This document shows, in pieces, positions 9,070-46,045 of a DNA stretch of 60,011 bases; within the stretch, counting starts at the first letter, position 1; each line of letters opens with the position of its first letter. The stretch covers positions 1 through 60,011 of IMG/VR virus record IMGVR_UViG_3300027806_000047, one strand, 5' to 3'. The translations under genes and the position numbers were made by a program. Below the pieces are notes generated by a model, which was given only the letters and a program-made list of their open reading frames with translations, searched no databases and was not told the origin of the DNA. The DNA comes from a virus (taxonomy: Duplodnaviria; Caudoviricetes).

Positions 9070-9598
9070 CGTTGCCGGCGACGGTCCATGCCGCCGACCT
9101 CTGGACTCGGAACCCCAGTTGCGAAGGGCTGATCGGGCGGTGCTCGCCGGCCTGGATCTCCCAAGACTCGGACCCCGGCAGGTCCCCGACCACCAGCACC
9201 GCCCTTCGCACTCGAGTCAGCGTGTCCAGGAGGAGCCGCCGAGCCTCTGAGGATGGCAGGTGCTGGATGACGTCCTTCACCAGGGCGACGTCGAAGATCT
9301 CTCCGGCCGGCAGGTCACGCACCTCACCAGACAGCAGCCGGAGGCATCTGGGAAGCCGCTGGCGGGCTTTCTCAAGCGCGACGGGTGAAAGCTCCACTCC
9401 GGTGTACTCGGCGCACCACGGGGCAATCACGGCGGCCAGGCGGCCGTCCCCGCACCCGACATCCAAGAAGGAATCGCCGGGCTGAATCTGGCCCCGGACC
9501 CACTCGAGGCACGGGGCTGCCGCCTGGGGGTCGCTGCCGGGGCCCGAGCCCCCGCCCCAAGTGTCGTCAAGGTAGATCCGATCGAAGGCGTCCTTCAT
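9008..9598 (-). CDS. class I SAM-dependent methyltransferase
   Basis: FDRIY...WGGGSGPGS, FLDVGCGDG, KDVIQHL. This type often accompanies glycosyltransferases. Confidence 0.85.
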   Translation of the reverse strand: MKDAFDRIYLDDTWGGGSGPGSDPQAAAPCLEWVRGQIQPGDSFLDVGCGDGRLAAVIAPWCAEYTGVELSPVALEKARQRLPRCLRLLSGEVRDLPAGEIFDVALVKDVIQHLPSSEARRLLLDTLTRVRRAVLVVGDLPGSESWEIQAGEHRPISPSQLGFRVQRSAAWTVAGNVKAGWVLPGRAPGLSSGTAG

Positions 9599-25173: not shown

Positions 25174-25374
25174 TTACTCCGGCTTCTGGTCGCTCTCAGA
25201 AGGAGCCGCGAACCCAGCGGCTTTCGCTCGCCGGTACTTCAGCCGCTCTTCCGGGGTAAGCGGGGCACCCGACCTCATCTTCAGCTCCGCGTAAGCGGCG
25301 AACGACTGCAGAGCGTCCTCCTCTGGAGTCGTGTCCGGAGGGTCTTTGGAGAAGTCGGCGGGAAAGGCGCTCAT
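25174..25374 (-). CDS. hypothetical protein
   Basis: ATGA-coupled to the giant protein stop. Confidence 0.6.
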   Translation of the reverse strand: MSAFPADFSKDPPDTTPEEDALQSFAAYAELKMRSGAPLTPEERLKYRRAKAAGFAAPSESDQKPE

Positions 25375-28300
25375 GGCTTCAGTGTAAATCGCTTGAGGGT
25401 GCTGCCGTCCAGGCCCTCAGTGTAGTACTGCTTGGCCCGTACCTGCGCCAGCACCGCGTCCGGCGTGATGTCAGAATGTTGGAGCAGATCGTGAGTCAAA
25501 TCCAGACTGGAGTGTCCGACCGCCTCGTTCTTGATCGCGTTCCACCCCAACGTCGGCGATCCGCCGACGTTGGGGTGGTTGCCCAGCAGGTTTTTGATGT
25601 CCTGGGACCGATCGATGGCCGCCTGGAGTACCGTTTCCATCCCCTCGTAAAACGCGAGGGAGAAAGTAGGATCGGCGTTTTCGATCGGCCCATAACCGCC
25701 GTAGATGCTTGCGACATCCTCGGGGGTGCCGGTGCTGGTGTACTTGAAGTAGTCCTGCGGGGCCTTGCCGAACTGCCCCATGAAGAACTCGACGAACTTC
25801 CAGCGGTCCATGATCAGACCAGGGATGCCGAAGGTGAGGCCAACGAACCGCTGGACCTTGTTTTTGATGCCGACCGATCCGCGGTTGAGGGACCAGAAGC
25901 GGCGCCCCATCTCGCGGGAGGAGGGCGTGGCGTAAACGTCGGAGACTTTGTCCCAAGCCCCGTTCCACCGGGACAGCATCAAATAGAACGAATTGGCGTT
26001 CGAGGTCGCCGAATTGCCGAGCAGGTTGCCCGGCTGCGCGGTCGCCTTGTAGGCCCGAGAAACGATGGCGTTCCAGGCATCCTGAGTGAAGTCGGGGCCG
26101 AGGGTTCCGTCGATGGACTTCTGGATGTGCTCCAAGACCTCCGGTTGAGAAACTAGCCGAAGCCACGACGCCTCCTGGTGGATGGGGGCAAGGCGGCGAG
26201 ACAGCACCCCCCACAGGTGGTGCATCGCAGCCACCATGGGCGGAGGAGCCACGAACTGCGATGCGCCTTGGACGCGGGCCTGTATCGCCTGCCGCATCGC
26301 CACGGTGCTGTCCAAGCCGGACATGGCTGCCGCAAGGGTGCCGGCAGCGGTCTTCGGGCCGTGGTAAGCTCCAGTAACCAGGGCGACGTACTGTTGCGGG
26401 TTGTTGAGGAGCAACTCAGCCCCCGGCGGCGGCATCAGCACGTTGCCGGAGACGCCCGCCGTACGCATGAACTCGACGTATCCTGCGGGGTCGACAAACC
26501 GCGTCGGGTCGTTCCGCACCCGGTCGACAGCGGCGTCCAACCGCCCAAAAAACACCTTCTGCAGCTCGGTCTGGTTTTTGGCTCCAGCCAAAGAGTTCTT
26601 TGGCAGACTCTTGGCCAGCGTCGGCATCGTGTAGGAGACCAGCGGGACCAAGTCTTGCTTGCTTTGCGAAAGCTCCTTGAGCTTGGCGCGAAGGGCTTTC
26701 TTCTCTTCCTTCGTAGCAGCCGCGGCCATCGCAGTATTCACCTCCGCCATCTCGTCGGCGATGGCGGACATGCCCATTTTTTCCGCTTTCACGGTCGCCC
26801 CAGGGACCCGGACCAAGTACTTCGGGTCCGGGGTGACCGCAGGGCTGAAACGAATGTCTTCCTTTGCTTGGTCGAACCGCTGCGACAGCGGGATGACGTT
26901 GCCGGCGTCGTCGCGGGTGATGGGGTCGGCGGATTTGATCTGGGTTGGGTCGAAGGCAACGTATTCTGTACCTCCTTTGAATCCAGGCGCATCCTGAGTC
27001 CTAATAATAGCCCCATCAAACCCATCTTGCTTTGCCTTCATTCTGAACAGTCTCGCCTTCGCTACGGTATCCAATGCGGACTGCTCTCTTTCTGAGAGTT
27101 CAATCGGGTTTTCAATGCGCAGGAAATACGGAGCAGTGTTTCCGTATTGAGACGCGGTTTCTTCTGAATCAGAGAAGAATGAACCAAGTGCTGACGATTC
27201 GTGCCTTGATGTCTTCTCTCCGGCGCGAACGTTGAACACCGTCGGCTTTGCTCCACCATGCCACACCGGCCCAACCGTGTACCCCGCCTTTACCGCCGCC
27301 TCATCGACCATCCGCTGCGCGGCAGCCGTGTCGCCCTTCTGCACCGCCGAGAGGTAGGCGGCGTCCTGCTCCGGAGTGATCTTCGGGCTGAAGAGGAGGT
27401 CCTTCTCGGTCGAGAGGCGCTCGACGGTGGCGACGCGGTTCGCGTTGTCAGTGTAGGTCTCGACCGCGAGGCCCGCCTGCCTGAGAGCGTCCACGACCTC
27501 AGGCGAGGTGGACTCCGGCACCACGGCGGCCCGGAACTCGTTCAGGGTCACGGCGCGTTGCGGCTTCGCCTCGAAGTACTCCGTCGGGGCGGTGGCCAGC
27601 TTCGTCGCGAAGTCCCGGACCGCCTTCACCAGGCTGTCTGGGACACGCTTGAACCCTGCCGCCGATAGGAGGGCTCCGGTCGTGGCAGGGCGCTTGGCGG
27701 CCTTGCCGACGGCCTCGGACAGGCGGTCAAGGCGCTCGAACGCGCCCGCCTCCGGGTTGAAGTACTGGAGCCTGTCCGACAGCTCCGAGAACTCCCGCGA
27801 CTGGGCGTCCTTGAACGCCCGCATGCTTTCGCTGTCGGTTAGCGAGCCCCTCTCAGAGCGCACGGCTTCCAAGCTGGGAAGCGCCTTGGCCGAGTCGGAG
27901 CGGGCCTTACCGAGCGAGTAGGTCATGCCCCTCTCGCGAGCCCGGGGGTCGCCCGACATCTCCTCGACCAGGGTGTCGAGAGCGTAGGGCTTCTTGGTGC
28001 GGCCGGAGAGCAGCTTCTGGTCGGTCTCGAAGGTGTCGGCAACCAGACCGTCCACCCACTGCTCGAACTCGGCCTTGAGAGGTGTGAGCTGCTCGCGGAT
28101 CCAGTCCTGGATGCCGTACCTGTCGATTTCCTGCTCGTTCTTCGCGACGGTGGCCAGATCGTCCACGATGTCGCTGATGTAGCGAAACGGGAACGGAGTG
28201 CCTCGGGCACCGTAGGACTTTTCCATGAGCCCGTTCAGGCGCTGCTTTTGCTCCTCGGTGATGCCTTCCAGATCGCTCATCCGCCCCGCGACCGCCAGGT

Positions 28301-31300
28301 CCCGGACGGCGTCTCCGGCGGCAATGCCTTCTGGCGTTTGGAGGAAGTCGTAGAGGTCGCTGGAATGCTGCGACAGCACTGCCAGGCTCGGGTCTGCGAG
28401 CTGCTCCCGACTCAGGGAGCGGTTCCGAAGGTTGGGGTCCTTCATCAGGCGCGGCACCTCGATACCCCTCTGGGTGAGGAAGGCGGCCTGCACGTCCGGG
28501 GCGCCGGCCAGCTTGCGACGTGTCTCCAGCACGTTGTTCTCCCCCTTCTCGACCACCATGTCGTAGGCGCGTTCGCCTGGGGCGAGGTCGCTCCATGTCT
28601 GGAAACCCTTCGGGAGGAGTTCCTTCATCCGCTTCGAGAGCCTGTCCCGTGCTCCGCGCTTCACGGCCTGGAAAGGGCGCGGCTGGCGCGGAGAGTACAC
28701 GTCCGCGTTGTAGACCTTGTTGCGGGGATCCGCCTGGGGGTCGATGGCCGACTTGTCCGCGATGAGCGTGATGTCGCCGAAGCCCGTGAAGGCCGTGTCC
28801 TTCTTGGTGATGCCGAGGCTGGGCACTGGGATGCCGCCGAGCTTCAAGGCAGCGCGGATGCCTTCCTCGGTGGTGTTGTGCAGGGCCACCAGGTTCCGAT
28901 CGACCTTCGGGCTGAAGCGGATGTCTTCCTTTGCTTGGTCGAACCGCTGCGACAGCGGGATGACGTTTCCGGCGTCGTCGCGGGTGATGGGATCGGCCAA
29001 CTTGATTCGATCGGGGTCGAGCACGGCATAGGAATCGATCCCCTCCCGCTCCTGGAGCTTGAAGACTCTGAACCCTTGGCTGATCAGCTCCGCTCCAGCG
29101 TCGGCCGCCGGGTAGTCAAAGATCTCCCAAGTGAGATCTTTCTTGGGGTCGAACCGCGGCGACTTTCGGGCCGGATCCAGCTCCTGCATTTCACGGAACA
29201 GGTCCTCGTCTGCCGCCCATCCTCCAGCCTCATTGAACGCCCGGACCAGCTCCTTGTACTGCGGAGATTCTGGATCGGACAAATCGGCCACCTTGTCATC
29301 AGCTCTGAGGTAGAACGATCTCAGGTTGGACCCATAGCCCCGAGCGTACTCCTTGTCGGCGGTGAAGTACGAAGCCCCAGCCCTGCCGGGCTCAAACTCG
29401 GTGAACTCGTCGCCGGTCCCGTGCCATAGAGGGCCCAGCGTGTACCCCGCCGCCTTCGCCGCCTCATCCACCATCCGCTGCGCTGCCTGGGTGTCGCCCT
29501 TCTGCACCGCGTCGAGGTAGGCGGCGTCCTGCTCCGGAGTGATCTGCGGGCTGAACCGCTCCTGTCCCTTGGTGCTGATGGACTGGGCCATCTCAGGGGT
29601 GATGGAGACCTTCCAGAATGGGGTCTTCGCTTCTCCAGAGGACTTCACCTTGTAGCCCGCGCCCGCGTCGGGAGGTGCGACGTCCAACTCCGCCTTCTCG
29701 ACCTTCCCTCCCCACTGCTTGACGTACTTCTGGACCTCGTTGGGGAGGATCTTGTCGTAGAAGCCGCGCATGCCCTCTCCGCCAACCTTGAGATCAACCC
29801 CGCCCAAGGAACGGCGGGTGCCGAAAGCCGGTTGCGCGAGAAGTTTCTCCGCAGCCTCCTTGCCGATGTACTCTGGCAACTGCTCGGGTGATACGCCCGT
29901 TTGCTCAATGACCGTCTTGCCGTTGAGGTCGTAGGCTTTCAGGTTCGTGCCGGAATAGTGGATCTCGGAGATCCGCTTGCTCAGGTCAAACCGAGTCGCC
30001 TGGGTGTCGCCGGTAGTCCAGCCGACCCACCCCTGCCCGTTGGCCACCGCTTCCCGAAGAGCCCGTTTGAACATCTGAAGGCCCCAGTCCTTACGGAACG
30101 GCGCGTCAGGGACTCCGGTCTGGCCCCCGGTCTTTGAATTGATGTCGGACGACAGCGTGGTGATCTCGTCCTGCTGTGCTGGCGTCCGGTCTTTGGCGGG
30201 AATCTTGAGCAGCTCATCGAGGCGAGACTGCATCTGCTCCTTTGTTTGAGCGTACCCTTTCTGACGGCCCTCTTGATGGCGGTCGCTCTGGACCTCTTCG
30301 ATGAACAGGCCCGGCCGCCCGTCAGCATCGACACGGTCCTTGAGTCGCATGTGCGCCACGTAGTTAGAGGTGTCGAAATGGCGAGACTTGTAGCTCCCGC
30401 GCTCCCGATCGAACACGGCCCCCCTGTTGAGAGATTCCAAGGCACCTGCCACGGCCTCTTGTTCGGTGTTGAACAGGCCGTCAAGGCGGCTGTGGTTGAA
30501 CCCGACCTTGAAGCCGGACTTGTCGGACACCCAATACCCCTCCTTCGTCCCCGACTTCTGGAGCTTTGGCTGATACCCGGGAGGCAGTTCAGTCAGTTTC
30601 TTCTCCGGCATCGCCAGCACGACTTCGCGATAGTCCTCACCACCCGGCAAAGTGTAGTCGGCGTATTGAGAGTAGCCCGTATCGTCACGTTCCGAGCTGA
30701 AAACCTCTTGGCGCAACGGAACGCGGTTCTTCTGGAGTGCCTGCATCAGGGCCTCCTTGGGGACCTTGCCACCGTTCTGCGCGGCGAGCTGGTCGATGAC
30801 CTCGTCGGCCTTCGTCCACTTCATCTCCTCGGCCTTGACGCCGCGGTTCCGGAGCACTGCCTTCAACTGGGCGGCCGGCATCGAAGCACCCTTCATCTCG
30901 TCGCCGATGACCTGCTCCAGCTTCGAGTAGAAGCCCTTCTCCGGGCTCTGGGCGACGCCGGGGCTGAACAGGAGCTTCTCCCCAGCGTTGCGAACGACCT
31001 GGTCCTCGGAAGCCTCTCGGGGCGGGGTCTCGAACAGCCTCGGGGGCCGCATCATCGCATCGCGAAGTCCGCCGAATCCGGGGATGAACGCATCGTCCAA
31101 GATGCCGTCCCTGACCAGTTGCTCGAACATCACCGCGTCCGACTCGAACGACCCATACGCCACTGCCGATGAGGCTCCGTTGGCGATGGCGAACTTGCGG
31201 ACTTCCTCGGCGAACTTCTTGGAGTCGATGTTCGGGGAGATCTCGCCAACCGCTTTGATGTACTTGCGAGGATCCAGAAAGAGGATCATCCGAGACGGGT

Positions 31301-34300
31301 TGTTGGGGTTGGCAAACGCTGCCCCCACGCGAGCCAGCGCCGACGGCCCAACGATTTCAGCGTCCCAGATTGGCTTGTTGAGCCACTTGTCGGGGCCCGG
31401 CGCGGGCACCTGCACTCGATCCACGCTGCCGAAGCTCGTAATGATGTGGTGGTCGGTGTGGTTGGTAACGACGTGGCCCAAGAAGCGCAGCGTCGCGAGC
31501 GGGGAGCTTCGGAATCCAACCCACGACAGAATCGACTTCGTTGCCCGGACGTCCGGCTCGGAGGGGGTAGAGATGCCGGAAGGATGGTTGTGGGTCCAGA
31601 ATAGGCTGTCCGCACCGGACGCGACCGCCATCTTCGAGAGTTGGTCGATGTCTAAACCTTTCGTCAGCATGTGGACCGCGTCCGGCTGACGGACCGTCGT
31701 GTTCGCGACGGCCACCACTTTGCCTTCCTTCACGAACACCCACCGCATCGCCTCGAAGGCCGGGTTCCGGAACAGCGCGGCGACGGCGTGGCGGTCCTGG
31801 GCGGTCGCGGCCGACATCCCGATCGGGTTTACGGGACCGCGCTTCAGTAGGCGCTTGATGCGGCTGGCAGTGATCGAGAACGTGGTCGGCGCGTCCTTCG
31901 GTTGGCGAGGTGCTCGCGGGGCGGGCGAGGGCTTCTCAGGGGCCAGCGCCTCCTCCGTTCCGAGCTGATCCACGGCCTTGTTGAAGTTCAGCTCGAGCTG
32001 CTCGGGCGGGACCACCTGCGGGCTCAGGTTCCGGACCTGCTTGCTGTAGTCGGGCTTCTGGTAACCCGTCACGTCGCTCGGCTCGACGGTCTGGAGACGG
32101 TCGGCGCGGTAGGAGCGCACGATGCCCTGACGGTCCTTGCCCTTGGCCTGGGGCCGCAGCGGGTTCAGCGCCTCGAAGGTGCGATTGCCGCCCACCAGGA
32201 AGACGTTGATGACGTTCCGCTTCATCTCGCCGATGCCGTCCGACCCCGGTCGGCCCTCAGCGTGGTTCTTCAGGTAGGTCTGGACGTCGGCCTTGAAGGT
32301 GCTCAGGTCGCCGTTCCACAGCTCAAGACTTAGGGGACCCTTTCGGCCTGCCCAGTCGGAGGCCTTCCGGTCCAGAGCCGTCAGGCTGTAGTTCTGCACC
32401 AGGAGGTTGCCCTGCTTGTCGACCTTGAACGCGAAGGGGATGAAGTCCTTGTACTGGGCTTCCATCGCGCCCAGGGACTCGCGGACGCTCGCGGCCCAGC
32501 CGTCGCCCGTGCCGATCTGCTGATACCAGCCGGCCATCGTCTCGTTGTTCGCGATCGCCTGCTCGACGCGGCGGAGCATGTTCTTGGTGCCCTCGCCGAA
32601 GCTGCGGGCCGTCGCGTAGAACTGCTCGCCCAGTCGGGTGCCGGTCTTCTCGGTCAGCCCCGACGGGCCTTGGCGGACGCCGACGTTGCTCGCCTGCGGG
32701 TTGGCGTTTCCGGAGGGCGGGACGTCCGGGAACAGCGTCAGCACTTCCTTTCGGCGGTTCCGGACGCGGGCCCGGACGACCGGGACGGGCGTCTCGCGGG
32801 TCTGGCCGTTCACGACATCGACAAAGTCGTTGCCCTGAGTGCCGTCGGCTCGGGTCTCGGTCGGGAGGGCAGGGTGGTTGCCGGCCTGCTCGGGCCGGAG
32901 CCTCACGCCGGGCTCCTTCTGCATGTCCACGGCCGGCCGGAACTCCGAGGCCGCCTGGAACTGCTGTCGCACCAAGTCGAGGGTGGCCGGATCCTTGAGC
33001 ACTTTCCGCACGTCAGCATCCCGGAAGAACGACTGCGTGTCGGTGCGCCCTAAGACGACGGGAAGCGCCTCGTTCAGGTTCACTCCGCGGAGACCGTTGG
33101 CCATCGCCTCGGAGAACAGTTCGCCGACGATGAAGGCGTCGTCCTGCGGGATCGTGCGCCCGAGGGCCTGCTGGTAGTCCTGGCGAGCGCGGGCCATGCC
33201 GTCGGGACCGAGAGCCTGCCGGAAGTGCTGGATGATTGCCGGATTCGAGGCGGCGACCGACGCCATGAGGGCATGGCCGATCTCATGGAGCTGCCGGCCG
33301 GCGGCATCTACAGCCTCCAGGTTGACGGCGACGCGCCCTGTGGACTCGTCAAAGTAGGCCGCCGCGTTCGGATCCTTCGACGACTTTGCGAACTGGGCCG
33401 CATCCATCAGGTCGACCTTCAGGTCCTGACGTCCGGCCAGCATTCCCTGGAACGTCTGCTCCAGGATGACCGACGAGTGCATCAGTTCATCCGGGGTGGA
33501 CGCAACGACCAAGGGGTCCGCACCCGCTTGGATCGACTCGGAGGCCTTCCGCATCGAGTCGTAGGCGAAAGCCAGAGCCTTCCGCTCACGCGACATCCGG
33601 CGGAGCGCCGGGAGGGTGCCCGCGCCGCCGAGCAGGCCGCCGACGCCCGCTTCGCCGCCGATCTCCTCGCCCGACTTGCTGGTGTCTAGGCCGGTGAGCA
33701 GTGCGTCGGTGGCCGCGCCCTCGACGACGCCCTTGCCGAGGTCGCTGCCGACCCGCAGGCCCGTCTCGACCATCTGGCCGGCCTTCAGCTTGCCGACGAC
33801 GTTGGCCGTCACACCCCGGACAAGCCACTGGGGCGCGTTCGGGTCCTTGGCGATCTGCCGCCAGACGGGGATCGAGGAGTCCCAGTCCGCGTCCGCGATG
33901 GTGCGGAGCGCCGTGCCGGCCCGGGAGGCATTCTCCGACCACCGAGCAGCCTTTCGGATCGCTTCGGGCACCTGGGAACCGGCGAGGGCCCCCAAGGGAC
34001 CACTCGACGCGCCTGCGACGGCGCTGGCGGCACTCAGGGTGCCTTCGTATTTGTCCGCAAGCTCGCCAACCTTGCCGGCGGCCCTCTCCACCAGCTTTCC
34101 GCCGGTCTCGGCAGCCCGGCCGGCGGCCCCAATGCCCCGCTGGAATGCCCCCGGGCCCGCCTGAGCAGCTTCTGCGGCTTTCTTCGCAAACAGCGACTGG
34201 GCCCGCTTCGACTCCGAAGGCGGGGTCAATTGGATCGAGGGCGTCTGGAGGGGCGGGGCAGTCTCGTCGCTGCGCTGAACGGCCTCTTCCCAGGCCTTGC

Positions 34301-35201
34301 GGTTGTTCTCGGCGATGCGGGCGGCGCTGCCTTTGGCCTGTTGGGCCTTCGCAATCGTCGCTGCCTTGCCGCCCATCTCCAGAATGGGGGTGCCCAGCTT
34401 CTTGGTGATCCCGGGGGCTACCTTTTCGCCAATGCGAGTGCCGAGCCTGACCGCTCGGGATTGGAGAAGACCCGGGTCGGCCACCATCGACGCCAGCTCG
34501 GTGGTCTGGGCAAGGTCCTTCGGTGGGGTAACCGCCTTACCGAGCTTTTCGGCAATGGTGGTGTCTCCGCCTGTGGCCAAGTCAGCAACAGACGTGACCA
34601 CCTCCCCGAGCAGAGAACGATCTCCCTTCTGTAAGGCCTCGCGATCCGCCGCCTGCGCCGCGTCGCGGGCTTGAGCTTCGCGAATGACCGCAGCAGCCTG
34701 CCGGGGAAACACCTGAAGCATGGACAGCGTCCGGTCCATGCTGGGGCCCGCAAACTGCCAAGCGTTTTCGACCGCCCGGTCCACCGTGGGCAGGAACCCC
34801 TCTTCCGCGACTGCTCGACGCAAGACTCGGTAAGGGTCGAGTACCTGAGACTCGAACACATCCTTACCAAGTTGCCCAAGGTCGGCCGCACCGCGGAGAA
34901 CCGCTTCACCAGCCACCCTCGACGCATCCGTACCGGGAAGGTCGGGTTTGAGGTCCGGCGGAGCTGTCATCCGTCCGGCCAGCTCGCCAGCCGCGCCCGA
35001 GACTTGGCCCGCGAAGTCCGAAATGCCCTGCACGGCCCCCCGGGCATACGCCATCGGGTTTAGGCGGGATTTTACGGCCTCAGTACGGGCCTCGACGGCC
35101 TGCTGCGTCTCCAGCTCCTCCGGACTGACCACAGGAGCGTCGGCGATGAAGGGCTTGGAGCCGGCGGTCTTGATAGCAGGGTAGTTGGCGATGAAGGGCA
35201 T
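25371..35201 (-). CDS. giant polyvalent internal virion/ejection protein (3276 aa)
   Basis: Last gene of the ejection cluster. HEIGH zincin, HNHPSG..PS..D JAB/RadC, EEVQSD domain, two WHG ART-like domains, YFEAKP domain, HhH-like C-terminus. Confidence 0.85.
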   Translation of the reverse strand: MPFIANYPAIKTAGSKPFIADAPVVSPEELETQQAVEARTEAVKSRLNPMAYARGAVQGISDFAGQVSGAAGELAGRMTAPPDLKPDLPGTDASRVAGEAVLRGAADLGQLGKDVFESQVLDPYRVLRRAVAEEGFLPTVDRAVENAWQFAGPSMDRTLSMLQVFPRQAAAVIREAQARDAAQAADREALQKGDRSLLGEVVTSVADLATGGDTTIAEKLGKAVTPPKDLAQTTELASMVADPGLLQSRAVRLGTRIGEKVAPGITKKLGTPILEMGGKAATIAKAQQAKGSAARIAENNRKAWEEAVQRSDETAPPLQTPSIQLTPPSESKRAQSLFAKKAAEAAQAGPGAFQRGIGAAGRAAETGGKLVERAAGKVGELADKYEGTLSAASAVAGASSGPLGALAGSQVPEAIRKAARWSENASRAGTALRTIADADWDSSIPVWRQIAKDPNAPQWLVRGVTANVVGKLKAGQMVETGLRVGSDLGKGVVEGAATDALLTGLDTSKSGEEIGGEAGVGGLLGGAGTLPALRRMSRERKALAFAYDSMRKASESIQAGADPLVVASTPDELMHSSVILEQTFQGMLAGRQDLKVDLMDAAQFAKSSKDPNAAAYFDESTGRVAVNLEAVDAAGRQLHEIGHALMASVAASNPAIIQHFRQALGPDGMARARQDYQQALGRTIPQDDAFIVGELFSEAMANGLRGVNLNEALPVVLGRTDTQSFFRDADVRKVLKDPATLDLVRQQFQAASEFRPAVDMQKEPGVRLRPEQAGNHPALPTETRADGTQGNDFVDVVNGQTRETPVPVVRARVRNRRKEVLTLFPDVPPSGNANPQASNVGVRQGPSGLTEKTGTRLGEQFYATARSFGEGTKNMLRRVEQAIANNETMAGWYQQIGTGDGWAASVRESLGAMEAQYKDFIPFAFKVDKQGNLLVQNYSLTALDRKASDWAGRKGPLSLELWNGDLSTFKADVQTYLKNHAEGRPGSDGIGEMKRNVINVFLVGGNRTFEALNPLRPQAKGKDRQGIVRSYRADRLQTVEPSDVTGYQKPDYSKQVRNLSPQVVPPEQLELNFNKAVDQLGTEEALAPEKPSPAPRAPRQPKDAPTTFSITASRIKRLLKRGPVNPIGMSAATAQDRHAVAALFRNPAFEAMRWVFVKEGKVVAVANTTVRQPDAVHMLTKGLDIDQLSKMAVASGADSLFWTHNHPSGISTPSEPDVRATKSILSWVGFRSSPLATLRFLGHVVTNHTDHHIITSFGSVDRVQVPAPGPDKWLNKPIWDAEIVGPSALARVGAAFANPNNPSRMILFLDPRKYIKAVGEISPNIDSKKFAEEVRKFAIANGASSAVAYGSFESDAVMFEQLVRDGILDDAFIPGFGGLRDAMMRPPRLFETPPREASEDQVVRNAGEKLLFSPGVAQSPEKGFYSKLEQVIGDEMKGASMPAAQLKAVLRNRGVKAEEMKWTKADEVIDQLAAQNGGKVPKEALMQALQKNRVPLRQEVFSSERDDTGYSQYADYTLPGGEDYREVVLAMPEKKLTELPPGYQPKLQKSGTKEGYWVSDKSGFKVGFNHSRLDGLFNTEQEAVAGALESLNRGAVFDRERGSYKSRHFDTSNYVAHMRLKDRVDADGRPGLFIEEVQSDRHQEGRQKGYAQTKEQMQSRLDELLKIPAKDRTPAQQDEITTLSSDINSKTGGQTGVPDAPFRKDWGLQMFKRALREAVANGQGWVGWTTGDTQATRFDLSKRISEIHYSGTNLKAYDLNGKTVIEQTGVSPEQLPEYIGKEAAEKLLAQPAFGTRRSLGGVDLKVGGEGMRGFYDKILPNEVQKYVKQWGGKVEKAELDVAPPDAGAGYKVKSSGEAKTPFWKVSITPEMAQSISTKGQERFSPQITPEQDAAYLDAVQKGDTQAAQRMVDEAAKAAGYTLGPLWHGTGDEFTEFEPGRAGASYFTADKEYARGYGSNLRSFYLRADDKVADLSDPESPQYKELVRAFNEAGGWAADEDLFREMQELDPARKSPRFDPKKDLTWEIFDYPAADAGAELISQGFRVFKLQEREGIDSYAVLDPDRIKLADPITRDDAGNVIPLSQRFDQAKEDIRFSPKVDRNLVALHNTTEEGIRAALKLGGIPVPSLGITKKDTAFTGFGDITLIADKSAIDPQADPRNKVYNADVYSPRQPRPFQAVKRGARDRLSKRMKELLPKGFQTWSDLAPGERAYDMVVEKGENNVLETRRKLAGAPDVQAAFLTQRGIEVPRLMKDPNLRNRSLSREQLADPSLAVLSQHSSDLYDFLQTPEGIAAGDAVRDLAVAGRMSDLEGITEEQKQRLNGLMEKSYGARGTPFPFRYISDIVDDLATVAKNEQEIDRYGIQDWIREQLTPLKAEFEQWVDGLVADTFETDQKLLSGRTKKPYALDTLVEEMSGDPRARERGMTYSLGKARSDSAKALPSLEAVRSERGSLTDSESMRAFKDAQSREFSELSDRLQYFNPEAGAFERLDRLSEAVGKAAKRPATTGALLSAAGFKRVPDSLVKAVRDFATKLATAPTEYFEAKPQRAVTLNEFRAAVVPESTSPEVVDALRQAGLAVETYTDNANRVATVERLSTEKDLLFSPKITPEQDAAYLSAVQKGDTAAAQRMVDEAAVKAGYTVGPVWHGGAKPTVFNVRAGEKTSRHESSALGSFFSDSEETASQYGNTAPYFLRIENPIELSEREQSALDTVAKARLFRMKAKQDGFDGAIIRTQDAPGFKGGTEYVAFDPTQIKSADPITRDDAGNVIPLSQRFDQAKEDIRFSPAVTPDPKYLVRVPGATVKAEKMGMSAIADEMAEVNTAMAAAATKEEKKALRAKLKELSQSKQDLVPLVSYTMPTLAKSLPKNSLAGAKNQTELQKVFFGRLDAAVDRVRNDPTRFVDPAGYVEFMRTAGVSGNVLMPPPGAELLLNNPQQYVALVTGAYHGPKTAAGTLAAAMSGLDSTVAMRQAIQARVQGASQFVAPPPMVAAMHHLWGVLSRRLAPIHQEASWLRLVSQPEVLEHIQKSIDGTLGPDFTQDAWNAIVSRAYKATAQPGNLLGNSATSNANSFYLMLSRWNGAWDKVSDVYATPSSREMGRRFWSLNRGSVGIKNKVQRFVGLTFGIPGLIMDRWKFVEFFMGQFGKAPQDYFKYTSTGTPEDVASIYGGYGPIENADPTFSLAFYEGMETVLQAAIDRSQDIKNLLGNHPNVGGSPTLGWNAIKNEAVGHSSLDLTHDLLQHSDITPDAVLAQVRAKQYYTEGLDGSTLKRFTLKP
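26842..28997 (-). repeat. dispersed direct repeat pair (26842-26930 and 28909-28997)
   Basis: Both copies encode ADPITRDDAGNVIPLSQRFDQAKEDIRFSP with near-identical DNA. Confidence 0.9.
27278..29555 (-). repeat. dispersed direct repeat pair (27278-27392 and 29441-29555)
   Basis: Both copies encode FSPxITPEQDAAYLxAVQKGDTxAAQRMVDEAAxxAGYT. Confidence 0.9.
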
Positions 35202-35204
35202 GGC

Positions 35205-36386
35205 TTATGGCTTGCGTTTGACCTCCCCCGAATCATCAAGGAACAGGGTTCCGGATGGCAGGGCGTTGAACTCGGCTTCTGATCGGACCCGTTCTACTCC
35301 GGGCGGCAGCGAAGGCCCCCCGGCCGGGGCCTCGAGGCCGAGGTCGACGGCTCGAGTGTTGAGGTCGTTCACCAGGCGATCGATCGCGTTCTTGGCGACC
35401 GTGTCGTCCGCGGTCATGCCGAGCGGCACCATGAACTTCTTGGTCGCGTTGACTTCGCCCTCACGCGCCACGCTGCCGGGGTCCAAGACCTTGGCCATGC
35501 TGATCGCCAGCAGGTAGGGGTTCTGCTCCAAAAGGGCCGCGTCTTGGGCGTTTCCAAACCGGCTTTCCCAGGTCCCGCTCCGGTCAATCGCGTCCTTCAG
35601 CTCCTGGGCGTACCGGCGGGCGGCCTTCAGGTTTTGGAGCGTGACGGTCTTGTCCGAAATCTTGGTCGCCGACTCCGGCTGGTTGTATGGAGACAACTTC
35701 ACCTCGTTCGACTTCGGGTCGATCGTCCGGATGAACTGCCCTTGTCCCCCGCTGGGGAGCGGAAGATCCACGATCTGCGGCTCGGTCACCGGATAGGTGC
35801 GCTCAAAAGTAGGGCCGGTCGGCCCCACCGAGCCAATGCGCCAGCCCGGAGTTGCCGCAGGGGCCGCAGGGGCCGCAGGGGCCGCAGGCACTCCTCCAGG
35901 AGCGGCGGGGGCCATTACGTCCGGGGCCGGCCCGCTGACAGGAGGAATGCCTCCGGCCGCAGCGTCCGGCCGGCCCAGAAACATTTCGTAATAGTTCGGC
36001 TTCAGCTCCTCGGCTTTCCCGTCTTCGCTGATCAGGAACCGTTTCCCTCCGATGTCCCTGACGACCGGCTCCCCTGGGATGCGCTCGAAGGTAAAGTCCG
36101 TTCCGCCGAACTCGTTCCGAGTGCCCGTCTTGGCCCGCATGCCTGCGGGCACCTGCGGGGGCTGAAGGCTCTTGTCGATCGCGCCTTTCTTGATGCCGAG
36201 AAGCTCAAGGTCGAGCTTGTGTCGAGCAGCGTCGCGGGCGGCCCGCTCCCGCTCGATGTCGAGCCGGTCCTTCTCGTAGCCCATCCGCTGCTCCTCGAGC
36301 TGCTGCCGGCGCTTGCGCTCCTTCGACTCCGCGAGCATGCCCATGCCCTGCTGGAACGCCTGAAATCCGCTGGTCCAATCGCTCAT
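35205..36386 (-). CDS. putative ejection/internal virion protein
   Basis: Position, N-terminal amphipathic plus coiled-coil region, C-terminal EFNALPSGTLFLDDSG. Confidence 0.65.
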   Translation of the reverse strand: MSDWTSGFQAFQQGMGMLAESKERKRRQQLEEQRMGYEKDRLDIERERAARDAARHKLDLELLGIKKGAIDKSLQPPQVPAGMRAKTGTRNEFGGTDFTFERIPGEPVVRDIGGKRFLISEDGKAEELKPNYYEMFLGRPDAAAGGIPPVSGPAPDVMAPAAPGGVPAAPAAPAAPAATPGWRIGSVGPTGPTFERTYPVTEPQIVDLPLPSGGQGQFIRTIDPKSNEVKLSPYNQPESATKISDKTVTLQNLKAARRYAQELKDAIDRSGTWESRFGNAQDAALLEQNPYLLAISMAKVLDPGSVAREGEVNATKKFMVPLGMTADDTVAKNAIDRLVNDLNTRAVDLGLEAPAGGPSLPPGVERVRSEAEFNALPSGTLFLDDSGEVKRKP

Positions 36387-36395
36387 GGTTCCTCC

Positions 36396-37151
36396 TTACA
36401 AAAGTCCTGCTGCACTTGCTGCACCTGCCGCGCCGAGACCCTGCAAGATGTAGTCGCCCGCGCCCGGCTTGTAGTACTGGTTGCCATTCATGGCCGGGGG
36501 CTCGCCGCTTGCCAGCGTCTTCACCAGGTTGGCGATGGTGTCGTAGCCCGCGTACTCGAGGCCGGGGATAGCCTGGAGCATCTCCACCGGGCGCGATGCA
36601 GCACTCGAGACGATCTGAGGGGCGGCCATCTGAAGTCCGCGCTCCCGGGCGTAGTTCTCGGCCTGCGTCTGAGCCTCGGTGGCCCCCATTGCAGCCTGGC
36701 GCATCGCCTCCTGCCGACCGATCTGGGCCTCCAGAGCCGCCGCGGTGCCCTCCTGGGCGAGTTGGTTGCCGGTCCCGAAGGTCTGGCCCGCCCGGCTGAA
36801 CTGGGCGCGGGAGGCGTTCTGGGCCGACGCGAGGTTGGCGCGGGCGTCCGCAGCACCTGCCTGGGCGGCCGTGTTGGATGCCGCACGGGTAGCGGCTAGG
36901 CTCCGGTCCAGCAGCGGGCTGCGGAGGTAGTCCCCGCGCATCACACTCCTGCCGAACTGGCCGACAGGAGCCATGGCTCGCGCCCCCGTCCGGGCCGCCG
37001 CGACGGCTTCCTGAGCGCCGGCCCCGGCACGGCCTTGGATGCCTGGCAGGGCATCGAACACGTATTTCCGAAGAGCCTGGCCCCCGCTCTGGCTGTAGAG
37101 CGGGTCCATCTCCTTCGGGTCGGCTTGCTTGGTATCTCCGCAAAATCCCAT
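36396..37151 (-). CDS. putative ejection (pilot-like) protein
   Basis: MGFCG start, Ala/Gln-rich helices, hydrophobic Gly/Ala C-terminus. Confidence 0.65.
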   Translation of the reverse strand: MGFCGDTKQADPKEMDPLYSQSGGQALRKYVFDALPGIQGRAGAGAQEAVAAARTGARAMAPVGQFGRSVMRGDYLRSPLLDRSLAATRAASNTAAQAGAADARANLASAQNASRAQFSRAGQTFGTGNQLAQEGTAAALEAQIGRQEAMRQAAMGATEAQTQAENYARERGLQMAAPQIVSSAASRPVEMLQAIPGLEYAGYDTIANLVKTLASGEPPAMNGNQYYKPGAGDYILQGLGAAGAASAAGLL

Positions 37152-37166
37152 AGATCCTCCTGTGTG

Positions 37167-37421
37167 CTATCCCAGCCGGGTCCAAGGACCCGGCTTCGGT
37201 TTCTCGTCCGACAAGTACCCCACCCAGATCCCCCGATCCGGGTCCGAGAAGATCGTATCTTTCGGGGGCCGATTGACCAGCGGGTTCCAGCCCCGGTAGT
37301 CGACAGCATACGGGTTGAGCTTCGGCGCGGGCGGCGCAGGCGCAGCCGGCGTCGGGGCGGGCGGCGTCGGGGCGGGCATTCCCCCGGCCGGGCGCGGTCG
37401 TCGACTTCCAAAGCATCCCAT
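37167..37421 (-). CDS. 84-aa Pro-rich protein starting MGCFG
   Basis: ATG 2 nt after the previous stop, fills the operon gap. Confidence 0.55.
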   Translation of the reverse strand: MGCFGSRRPRPAGGMPAPTPPAPTPAAPAPPAPKLNPYAVDYRGWNPLVNRPPKDTIFSDPDRGIWVGYLSDEKPKPGPWTRLG

Positions 37422-37423
37422 GG

Positions 37424-37762
37424 TCAGAAATCGTAAGAGAACAGCGGCTTCCTGGGCGGGACGGGCAAGAGCATCGGTGCCTTCCACGATTTCCCAACCG
37501 GCTCGGCGCTCGAAGGACTTCGGAAGCCCTGGTTGAAGGCGCCGATGAACGGAGACGCCATACCCTTCAACGATTTTGCTCCGGCCCCTAGAAGCTGGAA
37601 AGGAGCTTTCACGACGTTGTTGATGGCGTCCTGGGCGGTGAGCGCGGGGCCAGACAAGGCCGTGGGTTCCGCCAACTGGGAGAAACGCTCCCGGTCACGT
37701 ATCCGACGGGCGAGGTCCATGCTCCCGCCAAAGCTCTGAAATCCGCTGCTCCAGTCGTCCAT
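37424..37762 (-). CDS. small putative virion protein starting MDDWSSGFQSF
   Basis: SD AAGGAG. N-terminus shared with 35205-36386. Confidence 0.6.
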   Translation of the reverse strand: MDDWSSGFQSFGGSMDLARRIRDRERFSQLAEPTALSGPALTAQDAINNVVKAPFQLLGAGAKSLKGMASPFIGAFNQGFRSPSSAEPVGKSWKAPMLLPVPPRKPLFSYDF

Positions 37763-37814: not shown

Positions 37815-38243
37815 TTAGTCCCAGCAGTACTCGCGATGCTTCTCGGACATCGCGTTCATGTGGGCCGGTCCCCCGCAGAGGTAGGCGACCTGGAAGAAGA
37901 AGTTCTGGTAGCCGCTCTTGATCACCTCGGCGGCCATCTGGTCCTTGATGTCGCTCCGCTTCCTCCAGGCCTCGCTGTCGATCCACTCCATCACGCCCGT
38001 GCGGAAGGTGCCCAACAGCACGTCCCGGTTCGCCTGGAAGAATGGGTTGGCCGAGACGGCCTCGGTGAAGACCACCAGGGTGAGTCCGACCGTGCGGGCG
38101 TCCACCTCCTGATCTCGATCCACCAGGTCATCGATGACGTGGAGGAACTGGTACACCGCCCAGCAGGCGTGAAAGGCGTTCTGGTCTCCACAGCACACCT
38201 CGGTAAAGATCGTGTCGATCTTCTGCTTGTGATCGGGACTCAT
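37815..38243 (-). CDS. isoprenoid-synthase-like (DDxxD) helical protein
   Basis: FLHVIDDLVDRD resembles the first Asp-rich motif of trans-prenyltransferases. All-helical, 142 aa. Confidence 0.55.
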   Translation of the reverse strand: MSPDHKQKIDTIFTEVCCGDQNAFHACWAVYQFLHVIDDLVDRDQEVDARTVGLTLVVFTEAVSANPFFQANRDVLLGTFRTGVMEWIDSEAWRKRSDIKDQMAAEVIKSGYQNFFFQVAYLCGGPAHMNAMSEKHREYCWD

Positions 38244-38443
38244 CCTACGCTTTTACCGTCGAGCTGGGTCTGAAGCTCCCGGACACACTCGGCCAGGTTG
38301 CGGATCGTCTGTTCCACCTCTCGGGTGTACGCAGCCATCGCAGTTTTCTCATCCTCGGACAAGCGAGAGATGGGCGGCCACCGGACTGCGGGCGCTACGA
38401 TGGAGTTTCCGACCTTCTTGATGAGCTTGATCGTGGTGGGCAT
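38240..38443 (-). CDS. small coiled-coil protein
   Basis: Coupled at both ends, YTREVEQTIRNLAECVRELQ. Confidence 0.65.
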   Translation of the reverse strand: MPTTIKLIKKVGNSIVAPAVRWPPISRLSEDEKTAMAAYTREVEQTIRNLAECVRELQTQLDGKSVG

Positions 38444-40587
38444 CAGTAGGCTCCTCCCTTGCGGGCGGTGATGTGGTAGCCGGAAACGCCCCAGTTGGCT
38501 CCGACGCTCTCCGAAGAGAACCGCACTCGAATGTACCGACCGCTGACGGTGGCGTTGACCTTGGTGGGCTCCGACCCGGCCGACGAGACGAGCAGGTTCT
38601 GGGGCACCGACCAACGGATGGGGCTGTTGAGGTTGTCCCTCGCGCCGATGGTCACTTGGAGAGTGGCGTCGCTCGGGACATTCTCCTTGCCGTTCAGGAC
38701 GATGTACACGGTGTCCACGTACTTCCAGATGGTGGGGTCACCGAAATCGAAGTCCGGCGTCTCGGCGGAGCTGGGAATCGGGTCCGGGTTGCAGTCGTCC
38801 CGGGAGGAGCGCGACCAGACCCGGCCGTGGACCAAGAGGCGGGGCACTGTCTTGTCCGGATCCTCCCCTCGGACCACGCTGCCGGCATCCCCGCCGATGG
38901 CCACCAGCGTGTATTCGCGCTCGGCGACGTCCACGTACTCGTACCACCGCTTGGCAATCCCGTTGCACTTTTCCGACGGGTCGAGCGAACTCCAAGTCGG
39001 CGCCAACTCCCAGTCGACGCGACCCAGGGCCGTTATGCCGTTGAGGTCGTCGGGGTATCGGTCGATGACCACCGAGTCCTCGGCGTAGTTCCAGATGTAG
39101 ACCTTGGTGACACCACTTGGTGTCGGGTAGGTGAACCACACTTCGCTGTCGCGCCGATTATGGTGGGCGACGATCTCGTCGGCTCGGGCCCAGTCCACCT
39201 CGTCTCGGAACTTCTCCCAGTGCTGCTGGGCGATCGCCCGGAGATTCTGCCCGCCTCCGTAGAGGTACATCCCTTTGTTACCGATAAAGGCGATCTCGCG
39301 GTCGCCTGCGCGGCACCAGGAATAACGGCCGATCGGCCCCTCGTCGATGATCTCGGGCCGGATGAAAAACGTCCCGGCCGCCTGCCCGACGCTTTGGATC
39401 GACTGGATGGACCGCTTCTTCAGGATGTAGGCGAACTCCGCCAACGTGACGACAGCGAAGATCTCGCCGTTGATCGCCGCGCCGACGTTGAGCACCTCGC
39501 CCGACTCGTTGGCGTTGACGGTCTCCACGGCGGACCCAGAGGGGATCTTTGCGCCGACGGCAGTGCCCCCGGTAAACCCGAGAGGAGTCAGCACCAGAGA
39601 AGACACGACGGTCACCTCGGCCTCCGGTGGGATGATCACGCTGCTGGTGCCGGTGTTTTCGACCTCGACCCAGTTCTGGAAGGACACCCGTGACCCGACC
39701 GAAAATACCTGGCCGGTGATTCGGTCGCCGATGCCGAGGCGCTCCACGGTGACCGAAAACGAAGGGGCCTGCTTGACCCGGTACAGGTCCTGGCCGGGGT
39801 TTTCGGTCGGGCCAATGGACAGGACGTCACCCGCAAACATCTCCGTGGGAACAGAGCCAAAGGGCAAGACGAGGGTGGCTCCGATTTCCGGGATCGGCGG
39901 GCTCGCCGCGGAGGTCTGGTAGGCGTAGTTCGCATTCCGGCTCCGGGCGGTGACTTTCAGGGCCGTCACCGCGCCGTTGACCTTGAGGCGGGCCCCCGTG
40001 GTCCAGTTGACGTAGGTATCGTAGCGCCCCAGGTAGATGCGCTTGGTCTGGCCCGCCTCGACGGACTGGGACCGTTTGATGGCGTTGGTGCGCTGCACCG
40101 ACTCCAGGGCCACGTCGGACACGCGGAAGTAGTCGTAGGCGATCTTCTTGAGGTCGCTCTCGTAGCTGACGATGCGGGCGAACTGGCCGGTCACGAACTC
40201 ACCCGCCAAGCCCGTGACGTAGGCGTGGGCCGTGGTGGACCCAGCCGGGGTCATCGTGAAGTCCGACTCAAGGCTTGCCGTCCCGAAGGCCGCCGTGACT
40301 CCGACGGGGATCCAATTGGAAAAATCCCCGCGCCCGCTCCACTTCAGCAGAGCCCCGCGCCAGAGCATGACGTGGTCGTCGAACACCTCGACGCCGTCGT
40401 AGCCGTTGGCGTCGGGAAGCCCTGGGATCGGACGGGCCTGCCCAGTGCCCGGCCAGAAGAGCGGCTGGACCGACGGCGTGGCGAACAGGACGCGGTCGAT
40501 GTAGTCGGCCGCGTACCAACGTGCGGTGCGGGCGGTCGAAGCCCCCGAGTAGATCGAGTCGAGAATGCCAGAAAACTGCAACGCCAT
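38443..40587 (-). CDS. tail nozzle/stabilisation protein (P22 gp10 or T7 gp12-like), C-terminal part
   Basis: LKWSGRGDFSNW, AFIGNKGMYLY, EVWFTYP..IWNY, SGRYIRVRF. Propeller-like pattern and position. Confidence 0.75.
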   Translation of the reverse strand: MALQFSGILDSIYSGASTARTARWYAADYIDRVLFATPSVQPLFWPGTGQARPIPGLPDANGYDGVEVFDDHVMLWRGALLKWSGRGDFSNWIPVGVTAAFGTASLESDFTMTPAGSTTAHAYVTGLAGEFVTGQFARIVSYESDLKKIAYDYFRVSDVALESVQRTNAIKRSQSVEAGQTKRIYLGRYDTYVNWTTGARLKVNGAVTALKVTARSRNANYAYQTSAASPPIPEIGATLVLPFGSVPTEMFAGDVLSIGPTENPGQDLYRVKQAPSFSVTVERLGIGDRITGQVFSVGSRVSFQNWVEVENTGTSSVIIPPEAEVTVVSSLVLTPLGFTGGTAVGAKIPSGSAVETVNANESGEVLNVGAAINGEIFAVVTLAEFAYILKKRSIQSIQSVGQAAGTFFIRPEIIDEGPIGRYSWCRAGDREIAFIGNKGMYLYGGGQNLRAIAQQHWEKFRDEVDWARADEIVAHHNRRDSEVWFTYPTPSGVTKVYIWNYAEDSVVIDRYPDDLNGITALGRVDWELAPTWSSLDPSEKCNGIAKRWYEYVDVAEREYTLVAIGGDAGSVVRGEDPDKTVPRLLVHGRVWSRSSRDDCNPDPIPSSAETPDFDFGDPTIWKYVDTVYIVLNGKENVPSDATLQVTIGARDNLNSPIRWSVPQNLLVSSAGSEPTKVNATVSGRYIRVRFSSESVGANWGVSGYHITARKGGAY

Positions 40588-45323: not shown

Positions 45324-45998
45324 TCAGCCTCCCATGCGGAGCGCACGTCCGCGGTTCTGTCGGCGGTTGTCCGTGAGCACGGCCTCCGACATCTGCGCGG
45401 CGGCCAGGTTCTCAAAGGAGGCCGCCAGCGGGTCGTTGAGGGCCGCAAAAGCGGTCGCCTTCACCTTGCTCTCCACCAGGTCCGGATAGTCCTGGAGGAG
45501 GAAGTTGGTGTCGCTGTCGTTCACCAGGTCCGCCGAGAACCTGAAGTGCGACACCTTGAAGTTGATGTCCTCGTCGGCGATGCCCGCAATGTTGATGGCC
45601 CACCCCGACGACGTGTTTTCGAGGAAGACGGGGAGTCCCGACAGGCGGCCCCGGACGTTGGGCGGGATCGTGGGCACGTTCGCCGCGGCCCGATAGTTGA
45701 TCAGGCTCTCCCGACTGGTGACCTCGCAGGGAAGCTCCGAGTGGGTCGCCGGCAGCGACGGATCCACGACGGTCACGGGCGACAGCTCCGGAGTCAGCTC
45801 CTTGAACTGGCTCCCCAGCAGCGCCGAGGACTGCCCGGCGACGATCGTGATCGGCGACCGCGCCTTCATGGCCGAGAAGTTAGAGGACATCTGGATGCGG
45901 CGGATCGCCCGGTTGATCCAGATGGGATACCAGACGGTCTCCTTGTCGGCCCGGTTCACGTCCTGGGCCAGCATCAGCTTGAGGTCACCGAAGGTCAT
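45324..45998 (-). CDS. head-tail adaptor (tail tubular protein A-like)
   Basis: MTFGDLK...WINRAIRRI...L.NDSDTNFLLQDYPDL. Follows the capsid genes. Confidence 0.75.
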   Translation of the reverse strand: MTFGDLKLMLAQDVNRADKETVWYPIWINRAIRRIQMSSNFSAMKARSPITIVAGQSSALLGSQFKELTPELSPVTVVDPSLPATHSELPCEVTSRESLINYRAAANVPTIPPNVRGRLSGLPVFLENTSSGWAINIAGIADEDINFKVSHFRFSADLVNDSDTNFLLQDYPDLVESKVKATAFAALNDPLAASFENLAAAQMSEAVLTDNRRQNRGRALRMGG

Positions 45999-46045
45999 GG
46001 CGTCGTCCTCCCATGCCGGCAATGTACAGAGGAGGGCTTGACTCT

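Follow-up and report, generated by a model that had tools for sequence, protein, structure and literature searches.

Two otherwise unrelated proteins of an uncultured freshwater podophage have an N-terminal module in common and are encoded in a putative ejection-protein block

The virus record IMGVR_UViG_3300027806_000047 (Duplodnaviria; Caudoviricetes) carries two genes whose products, of 393 and 112 amino acids (aa), begin alike. The stretch analysed, hereafter the window, is the whole IMG/VR record of 60,011 bases, estimated to be 91% complete and with a G+C content of 61-68%. Judged by its genes the window is a nearly complete podophage with portal, capsid and adaptor of the SU10 type, and the phage is an uncultured one of freshwater. 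The window genes and features described here all lie on the minus strand. The 393-aa gene occupies 35205..36386 and is predicted to encode a mosaic protein of the internal or ejection type; the 112-aa gene, at 37424..37762, is the first of a putative ejection-protein block. Both have a Shine-Dalgarno sequence just upstream. The common module comprises codons 1-32 of each. In the 393-aa gene (36291..36386) the core reads M-S-D-W-T-S-G-F-Q-A-F-x-Q-G-M and a basic stretch follows, and in the 112-aa gene (37667..37762) the core M-D-D-W-x-S-[GS]-F-Q-x-F-G, codons 1-12, leads into a basic stretch with R-x-R-x-R-E-R. The span 36354-37762 extends from the end of the motif in the 393-aa gene to the start codon of the 112-aa gene.

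A first-pass annotation, made from the DNA letters and their open reading frames (ORFs), had pointed to this N-terminal motif. Both N-termini read as quoted there and the similarity is far beyond chance. BLASTP aligns the proteins without gaps from residue 1 of each, with 14 of 32 positions identical (44%, E 6e-7). A tblastn search with the 112-aa protein over the 60-kb record has two matches only, the protein itself and, at E 7.5e-4, the 393-aa protein over residues 1-33. The observed local score of 74 was reached in none of 20,000 shuffles, the highest of which scored 49, and the runner-up among 623 candidate N-termini in the window scores 33. The two proteins place hydrophobic residues at positions 4, 8, 11, 15 and 18, small residues at 6, 10 and 14, and an Arg/Lys cluster directly after, at about 19-27. 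That no likeness would be found beyond this region is also borne out. Profile-profile alignment of the two families covers columns 1-26 only (E 1.3e-5), and on this ground we regard the proteins as otherwise unrelated.

A profile of 36 N-terminal columns gave eight matches at E <= 0.001 among 1.84 billion representative proteins. The 393 type accounts for five of them and the 112 type for one; the remaining two are eukaryotic repeat proteins, spurious matches of a compositional nature. No third family with the motif was found in this search. A scan of IMG/VR with a degenerate DNA pattern of the motif returned only the contig of a related phage, L001, and at 15 more distant loci no N-terminus common to a 393-type gene and its neighbours scored above the null. 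A candidate third copy in the window, SGFQTF near 52205, was rejected as internal to a 127-aa ORF and not significant (E 1.5). That acidic ORF (51981-52364), located between the terminase and portal genes, has an internal M-A-D-S-G-F-Q-T-F, a chance partial match, and no family match.

Superposition of the window sequences on those of the related contigs L001 and L068 reveals saturated synonymous sites, the proportion of synonymous differences (pS) being 0.70-0.75 and that of non-synonymous differences (pN) 0.21-0.29. The ratio of non-synonymous to synonymous rates (dN/dS) is 0.08-0.14 for both genes where dS could be computed. For the 112-aa gene against its L001 and L068 orthologs it is 0.08-0.13, which indicates purifying selection, and the alternative that this ORF is a decayed duplicate fails. 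The lowest pN values occur in codons 1-33, at 0.08-0.11 in the 393-aa gene and 0.13-0.22 in the 112-aa gene. Nine residues (M1, D3, W4, S6, F8, Q9, F11, R24 and R26) are identical in all seven N-termini of both families from the window, L001, L068 and L069; L068 and L069 are near-identical copies, and the seven therefore represent three independent lineages. Ortholog N-termini are closer to each other than are the paralogs. The copy is therefore old and not the product of recent gene conversion.

The 112 family is small. Even a profile search of 5.8 billion proteins brought no more than seven clusters, each with 55% or higher identity to the query, and M1, D2, D3, W4, S6, F8, Q9, F11 and G12 are invariant in 8/8 aligned members, the L001 copy included. 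There is no Pfam or PHROG family match to the 112-aa protein and no usable match in the ESM Atlas, and of 13 pattern matches in IMG/VR none was confirmed as a relative. On the distribution of its homologs it is a lineage-specific small protein. The AlphaFold2 (AF2) model is of low confidence, with a predicted local distance difference test score (pLDDT) of 57, and places a helix at residues 9-29. We note that the L068 contig carries an inverted duplicate of the start of its 112-type gene (L068:1-219), a 103-base fold-back at the contig end with arms 1-103 and 117-219 that are 99% complementary; this is most likely an assembly artefact.

The 393 family is broader, with 18 homolog clusters. One (P0006) starts only at the position that corresponds to residue 15. 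Among the other 17, which have an N-terminus, nine have the canonical [SA]-D-W-T-S-G-F, one has A-D-Y-T-D-A-F and seven have a degenerate form set behind a 5-residue extension. The motif is not, then, absent from homologs: 10 of 18 393-family N-termini, the window included, retain it, the other eight being degenerate, as do all eight members of the 112 family. Position 4 is aromatic in every one of the 18 (Trp in 11, Phe in six, Tyr in one). The best conserved segments are residues 1-15, with a mean identity of 61%, and 237-350, with 62%; the other segments range from 25 to 48%. P0018 is 93% identical in residues 1-15, 45% in 181-236 and 17-30% in most other segments, whereas P0007 is 75-100% identical over residues 1-137 and 19% in 237-350. 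These patterns indicate that the family is mosaic and that the first 15 residues are a discrete unit. P0007 and P0018/P0028 have a different C-terminal helical domain, with 19-21% identity in 237-350, which suggests replacement of this domain by recombination.

In the AF2 model of the 393-aa protein (pLDDT 72.8) the module stands at the start of a single helix, residues 3-74. There follow a beta domain, a disordered linker rich in Pro and Ala (138-176), a second beta domain and a helical domain (245-348). Foldseek comparison of the model with the PDB gave nothing at E <= 0.001 (best E 0.026), VIA-align matches were limited to long helices and helical bundles of a generic kind (Z <= 8.1), and the top match in BFVD, at E 1.5e-4 with a low TM-score of 0.22, bears the name 'DNA transfer protein'. 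The conserved domain of the family (223-325) is also found in many proteins of marine and freshwater phages. Eight such distant relatives were scanned and an N-terminal cell-wall hydrolase domain was found in three, Hydrolase_2 in L099 and L111 and VanY in L114. No relative of either the 393-aa or the 112-aa protein was found among GenBank phages by tblastn with each protein.

At the level of sequence, then, the N-terminal module of about 30 residues is a discrete element that was copied between two genes, is held under purifying selection in both and is confined to two families of one phage lineage. The same comparisons place its origin in the 393 family, where it is old, with the copy onto a lineage-specific small gene made before the known relatives diverged. 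The direction is given by the 18 clusters of the 393 family, among them a distant clade with the degenerate motif, against seven close clusters of the 112 family, and by the absence of a 112 gene from the 15-kb syntenic locus of that clade, L070.

The position of the two genes was examined with respect to the whole structural operon. This runs from the large terminase (TerL, 52413-54029) to the portal (49536-51620, SU10_portal), a 411-aa gene for a putative scaffold, the capsid protein (SU10_MCP, 46593-47903) and the adaptor (SU10_adaptor, 45324-46022). Virion genes follow, encoding two glycine-rich proteins, a 774-aa protein with phosphoesterase, Ig and VWA domains and a DUF6734 protein, then the gene for a 714-aa virion structural protein (38443..40587; phrog_3287, E 1e-26) with syntenic copies in L001 and L070. 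After a 66-aa ORF and a 142-aa gene termed 'DDxxD' comes the block of five genes, which encode in order proteins of 112, 84, 251, 393 and 3276 aa. SU10 gp20-24, whose numbers come shortly after those of the nozzle (gp17) and the needle (gp18), are present in the virion and gone after genome release, and on that account are ejection proteins, as described in the part of PMC9509320 that deals with them. By gene order the five-gene block is likely to be the counterpart of the SU10 ejection-protein genes. The full order of 112-, 84-, 251- and 393-type genes occurs at three loci (window, L001 and L068); the upstream flank of L069 is too short to judge the arrangement. L070, from the distant clade, has 714-type, DDxxD, 84-type, 251-type and 393-type genes, and a 112-type gene was not found in its 15-kb syntenic locus.

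Two genes separate those with the module. The 84-aa gene (37167..37421) starts M-G-C-F-G-S and its product has no family match; the Ala/Gln-rich 251-aa gene (36396..37151) starts M-G-F-C-G-D and its product has no Pfam, PHROG or PDB match. These starts resemble one another and represent a second N-terminal motif, at 37404-37421 and 37134-37151 in the window, L001:8930-8947 and 9236-9253, L068:473-490 and 746-763, and L070:5845-5880 and 6127-6150. Both proteins begin M-G-C-F-G in L001 and L068, and the L070 pair have G-F-C-G and G-V-C-G; a Gly-flanked Cys is present in 8/8 N-termini. This G-C-F-G type motif is too short for statistics. With it, the first four genes of the block carry tags in the order A, B, B, A. 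At the junction of the 112-aa stop and the 84-aa start (37419-37426) a TGA is followed by 2 nt and the ATG, with no Shine-Dalgarno sequence, and in L001 and L068 the genes are three bases apart; the arrangement suggests that the 84-aa gene is translationally coupled to the 112-aa gene. Both spacer bases of the junction differ from the window in two lake populations.

The last gene of the block encodes a 3276-aa polyvalent protein (25371..35201), to which Pfam assigns a RadC-like JAB domain, PBECR5 and two ART-PolyVal stretches. Its N-terminus has a short tandem repeat (35127-35201 in the window, L001:11285-11460, L068:2716-2790 and L070:8091-8180). The window and L068 each have two copies of P-F-I-A-[ND]-x-P, L001 has three of a related repeat, and the L070 polyvalent protein starts with two copies of an unrelated repeat, A-K-[YF]-S-F-A-E-L-T.

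The region 35205-37762 recurs in public sequencing runs. At least half of the sampled words were present in 16 runs from 15 studies, two possible source runs not being counted. Eleven of these are of lake water, three of freshwater and two of 'fungus metagenome', and they are dated 2017-2025; the number of lake runs indicates that the phage is recurrent in lakes. No RNA run was listed for the region. Contigs of four lake runs were compared. The X7 and X8 contigs that cover the motifs (36125/36135-36827 and 37348-37762) have no difference inside either motif, the nearest being at codon 27 of the 112-aa gene, although this is a weak test as contigs drop rare variants. Contigs of two of the four runs carry variant 251-aa and 84-aa genes (36502-37305), one 316-base piece having 30 differences, and no difference from the window was seen in the pieces that span 35205-36154, most of the 393-aa gene. 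This is a sign that the block is mosaic at strain level. A 4,019-base contig from a metagenome-assembled genome titled Verrucomicrobium sp. also encodes, at L150:1-1041 and with 100% identity, residues 47-393 of the 393-aa protein. This contig is a fragment of the same phage. As a pointer to Verrucomicrobium as host it is a weak hint, because binning can misplace phage contigs.

Several known systems inform on what such a module might do. T4 is a myophage with a scaffolding core, and its prohead protease removes the capsid targeting sequence (CTS). The account of the T4 internal proteins IPI, IPII and IPIII in PMC3012670 has them share this CTS only. The resemblance is to a short conserved extreme N-terminus that is the sole similarity of otherwise unrelated proteins, packed in the head and delivered to the host (PMC3012670, PMC8402733, in their passages on these proteins), with a head location that is presumed for the proteins described here. 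The differences are that the present module is about 30 residues rather than about 10, is carried by two proteins only and belongs to a phage in which a prohead protease was not found in the ORFs of the window that were scanned. In phage P1 the first 30 residues of DarB, a large internal anti-restriction protein, suffice to send DarB and a reporter into the capsid, according to the section of PMC9024508 concerned. The block described here likewise ends in a giant polyvalent protein, but the P1 signal is described on one protein and is not common to two, and P1 is a myophage. P22 gp7 and gp20 bind procapsids via N-terminal parts, and the part of PMC8402733 on P22 gives each E-protein its own binding site, whereas an N-terminal motif common to two proteins would imply a common site.

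Among podophages, SU10 has five ejection proteins, gp20-24, and here five genes follow the tail genes. With the ejection proteins of SU10, P22 (gp7, gp20 and gp16) and T7 (gp14, gp15 and gp16) the present proteins have in common mosaic domains, with cell-wall hydrolase domains swapped among relatives. Indeed the Hydrolase_2 and VanY swaps among relatives of the 393 domain match the domain swapping that PMC8954989 describes, in the relevant portion, for ejection proteins. The difference is that no significant match to a solved ejection protein was found, in sequence or in fold. A description of an N-terminal motif common to podophage ejection proteins was not found in the literature searched, supplementary files aside.

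The reading that we rank first, and hold to be plausible though somewhat short of probable, is that the module is an N-terminal interaction tag that gives the 393-aa and 112-aa proteins one docking address. It is placed first because of the T4, P1 and P22 precedents and because other N-termini of the block also carry conserved short motifs. The module is read as an amphipathic helix in which W4, F8, F11 and M/L15 make up an aromatic face and S6, A/S/G10 and G14 or S/N14 a face of small residues; a basic patch that includes the invariant R24 and R26 comes next. Both genes lie in a block that, by its place in the gene order, may encode proteins packed in the head and ejected with the DNA. A single docking site could then serve both during assembly of the procapsid or of a pre-ejectosome, and wherever the 393-aa protein went the small one would be drawn in too. 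The action would resemble that of the N-terminal capsid-targeting sequences of T4 internal proteins and P1 DarB, and of the procapsid-binding N-terminal parts of P22 gp7 and gp20. The first-pass annotation had proposed a sorting signal. The idea survives insofar as the module is a selected functional element in a context that fits internal or ejection proteins. It does not survive as a general packaging signal, since only two families among the proteins searched carry the motif and the other three block proteins lack it.

There are observations that weigh against a common docking address. The motif is on only two of the five block proteins, and neither protein matched a characterised or solved ejection protein in PDB sequence searches, Foldseek or VIA-align. 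The status of the block as one of ejection proteins itself depends on gene order and on the fusions seen in relatives. In 7/17 homologs the motif is degenerate and behind the 5-residue extension, so that across the family the motif need be neither at the extreme N-terminus nor exact in sequence. There is no recognised prohead protease among the 43 distinct ORFs scanned with Pfam, where a protease of a novel type is possible, and processing of the T4 style is therefore unlikely. An L-x-E that follows the motif in the window protein was considered as a cleavage site of the T4 kind and set aside, as homologs do not keep it.

The pattern of residues in the module can be read in another way, which we consider unlikely but worth serious attention, with the aromatic amphipathic helix and basic patch anchoring both proteins on or in the host membrane after ejection. 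The module would then serve envelope targeting and not virion assembly. The hydrophobic spacing 4-8-11-15-18 and the small-residue face 6-10-14, with a hydrophobic moment of 0.29-0.47 over 11-18 residues, and the Arg/Lys cluster immediately following at 19-27 are what such a helix might show, and ejection proteins must span or anchor in host membranes, as the relevant part of PMC8954989 has it. The mean hydrophobicity is low, however, at 0.01-0.28, and there is no hydrophobic stretch of transmembrane length. AF2 moreover places the segment at the start of a 72-residue helix of the coiled-coil kind.

That long helix leads to a less probable explanation, in which the two homologous helices pack together and the small protein caps, primes or regulates an oligomer of the 393-aa protein. 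A single helix of 72 residues, if the prediction is right, would need partners for stability, and duplicated self-association helices are often still able to pair. The 112 and 393 genes co-occur at 3/3 canonical-motif loci with enough flank (window, L001 and L068). Set against this, the motif persists in 393-family clades for which no 112-type gene was found, which makes the function of the motif independent of the small protein. Residues 1-80 of the 393-aa protein were also modelled in complex with the 112-aa protein; the score was 0.00, the mark being 0.32, but the prediction was run without controls and we draw no conclusion from it.

The mosaic nature of the 393 family raises the question of whether the module has more than a generic structural role. 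Recombination might have copied a gene start, the ribosome-binding region and first codons, with the conserved part merely the beginning of a helix. The contrast between the two ends of P0007 is of this mosaic kind, and ejection proteins are described as mosaically modular (PMC8954989, same portion). Nevertheless we judge a leftover of this type improbable. Nine residues have stayed identical in both paralogs through saturated synonymous divergence, which is not expected of a generic helix start, and P0018 keeps its 93% identity in residues 1-15 where most of the rest has fallen to 17-30%.

It had further been suggested that Trp4 is a modification site, with co-occurrence of the motif and the DDxxD gene as a check. 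This 142-aa gene (37815..38243; phrog_21390, E 3e-17) is present in the window, L001 and L070 and lies directly upstream of the 112-aa gene in the window. Tryptophan prenylation of the ComQ/ComX type offers a comparison, with the DDxxD protein recognising or modifying Trp4. Three independent leads connect this protein to isoprenoid synthases: SQS_PSY (E 0.048; 13.8 bits against a cut-off of 26), phytoene synthase in the PDB (E 0.76) and, in the Atlas, the hexaprenyl synthase small subunit (score 0.78). All three are below significance, and 142 aa is about half the length of the isoprenoid synthase fold. The co-occurrence holds to the extent that the gene adjoins upstream in 3/3 loci with enough flank, but the DDxxD family, with widespread viral Atlas clusters of 106-417 members, is far commoner than the motif and extends well beyond its range. 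Trp4 is kept in 8/8 members of the 112 family, yet 7/18 393-family N-termini have Phe or Tyr at this position and L070, with Phe, retains the DDxxD gene. The suggestion is weakened accordingly and we regard it as very improbable.

Least credible of all is that the common 5' coding sequence acts as an RNA or translation-initiation signal: the two genes have the same 12 nucleotides, F8 is TTT in 7/7 despite the 65% G+C genome, the S6-G7-F8 codons are the same in 4/4 copies of the 393 gene (three independent lineages) and pS in codons 1-33 of that gene is 0.45-0.63 against 0.73-0.76 elsewhere in it, but orthologs differ synonymously within the motif at D3, T5, Q9 and F11, the 112 orthologs, with Ser for G7, do not share the 12-mer, 2/100 shuffles also gave two matches to the 12-mer pattern with one mismatch allowed, and AT-rich early codons are common for other reasons.

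A docking address for the 393-aa and 112-aa proteins thus remains the reading we prefer, and it can be extended to the whole block. The five proteins may carry an N-terminal 'address code', with the D-W-x-S-G-F-Q-x-F tag on two, the G-C-F-G type tag on two and the tandem repeat on the polyvalent protein, that sets the docking site in the head and hence the order of exit through the tail. We offer this as a speculation that is more likely to be wrong than right by a good measure. Were it true, it would amount to a protease-independent cargo-loading system in an SU10-like podophage, one that could be used for foreign proteins. As the motif is restricted to a small clade of freshwater phages that have not been cultured, heterologous assembly would be required for any test.

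The loading of podophage ejection proteins into the head and their ordered exit are poorly understood, and such N-terminal targeting signals as are known belong to the myophages T4 and P1. A tag of about 30 residues, conserved and portable, on two unrelated proteins of a podophage lacking a recognised protease would be a handle on the docking site, the order of ejection and the loading of cargo.

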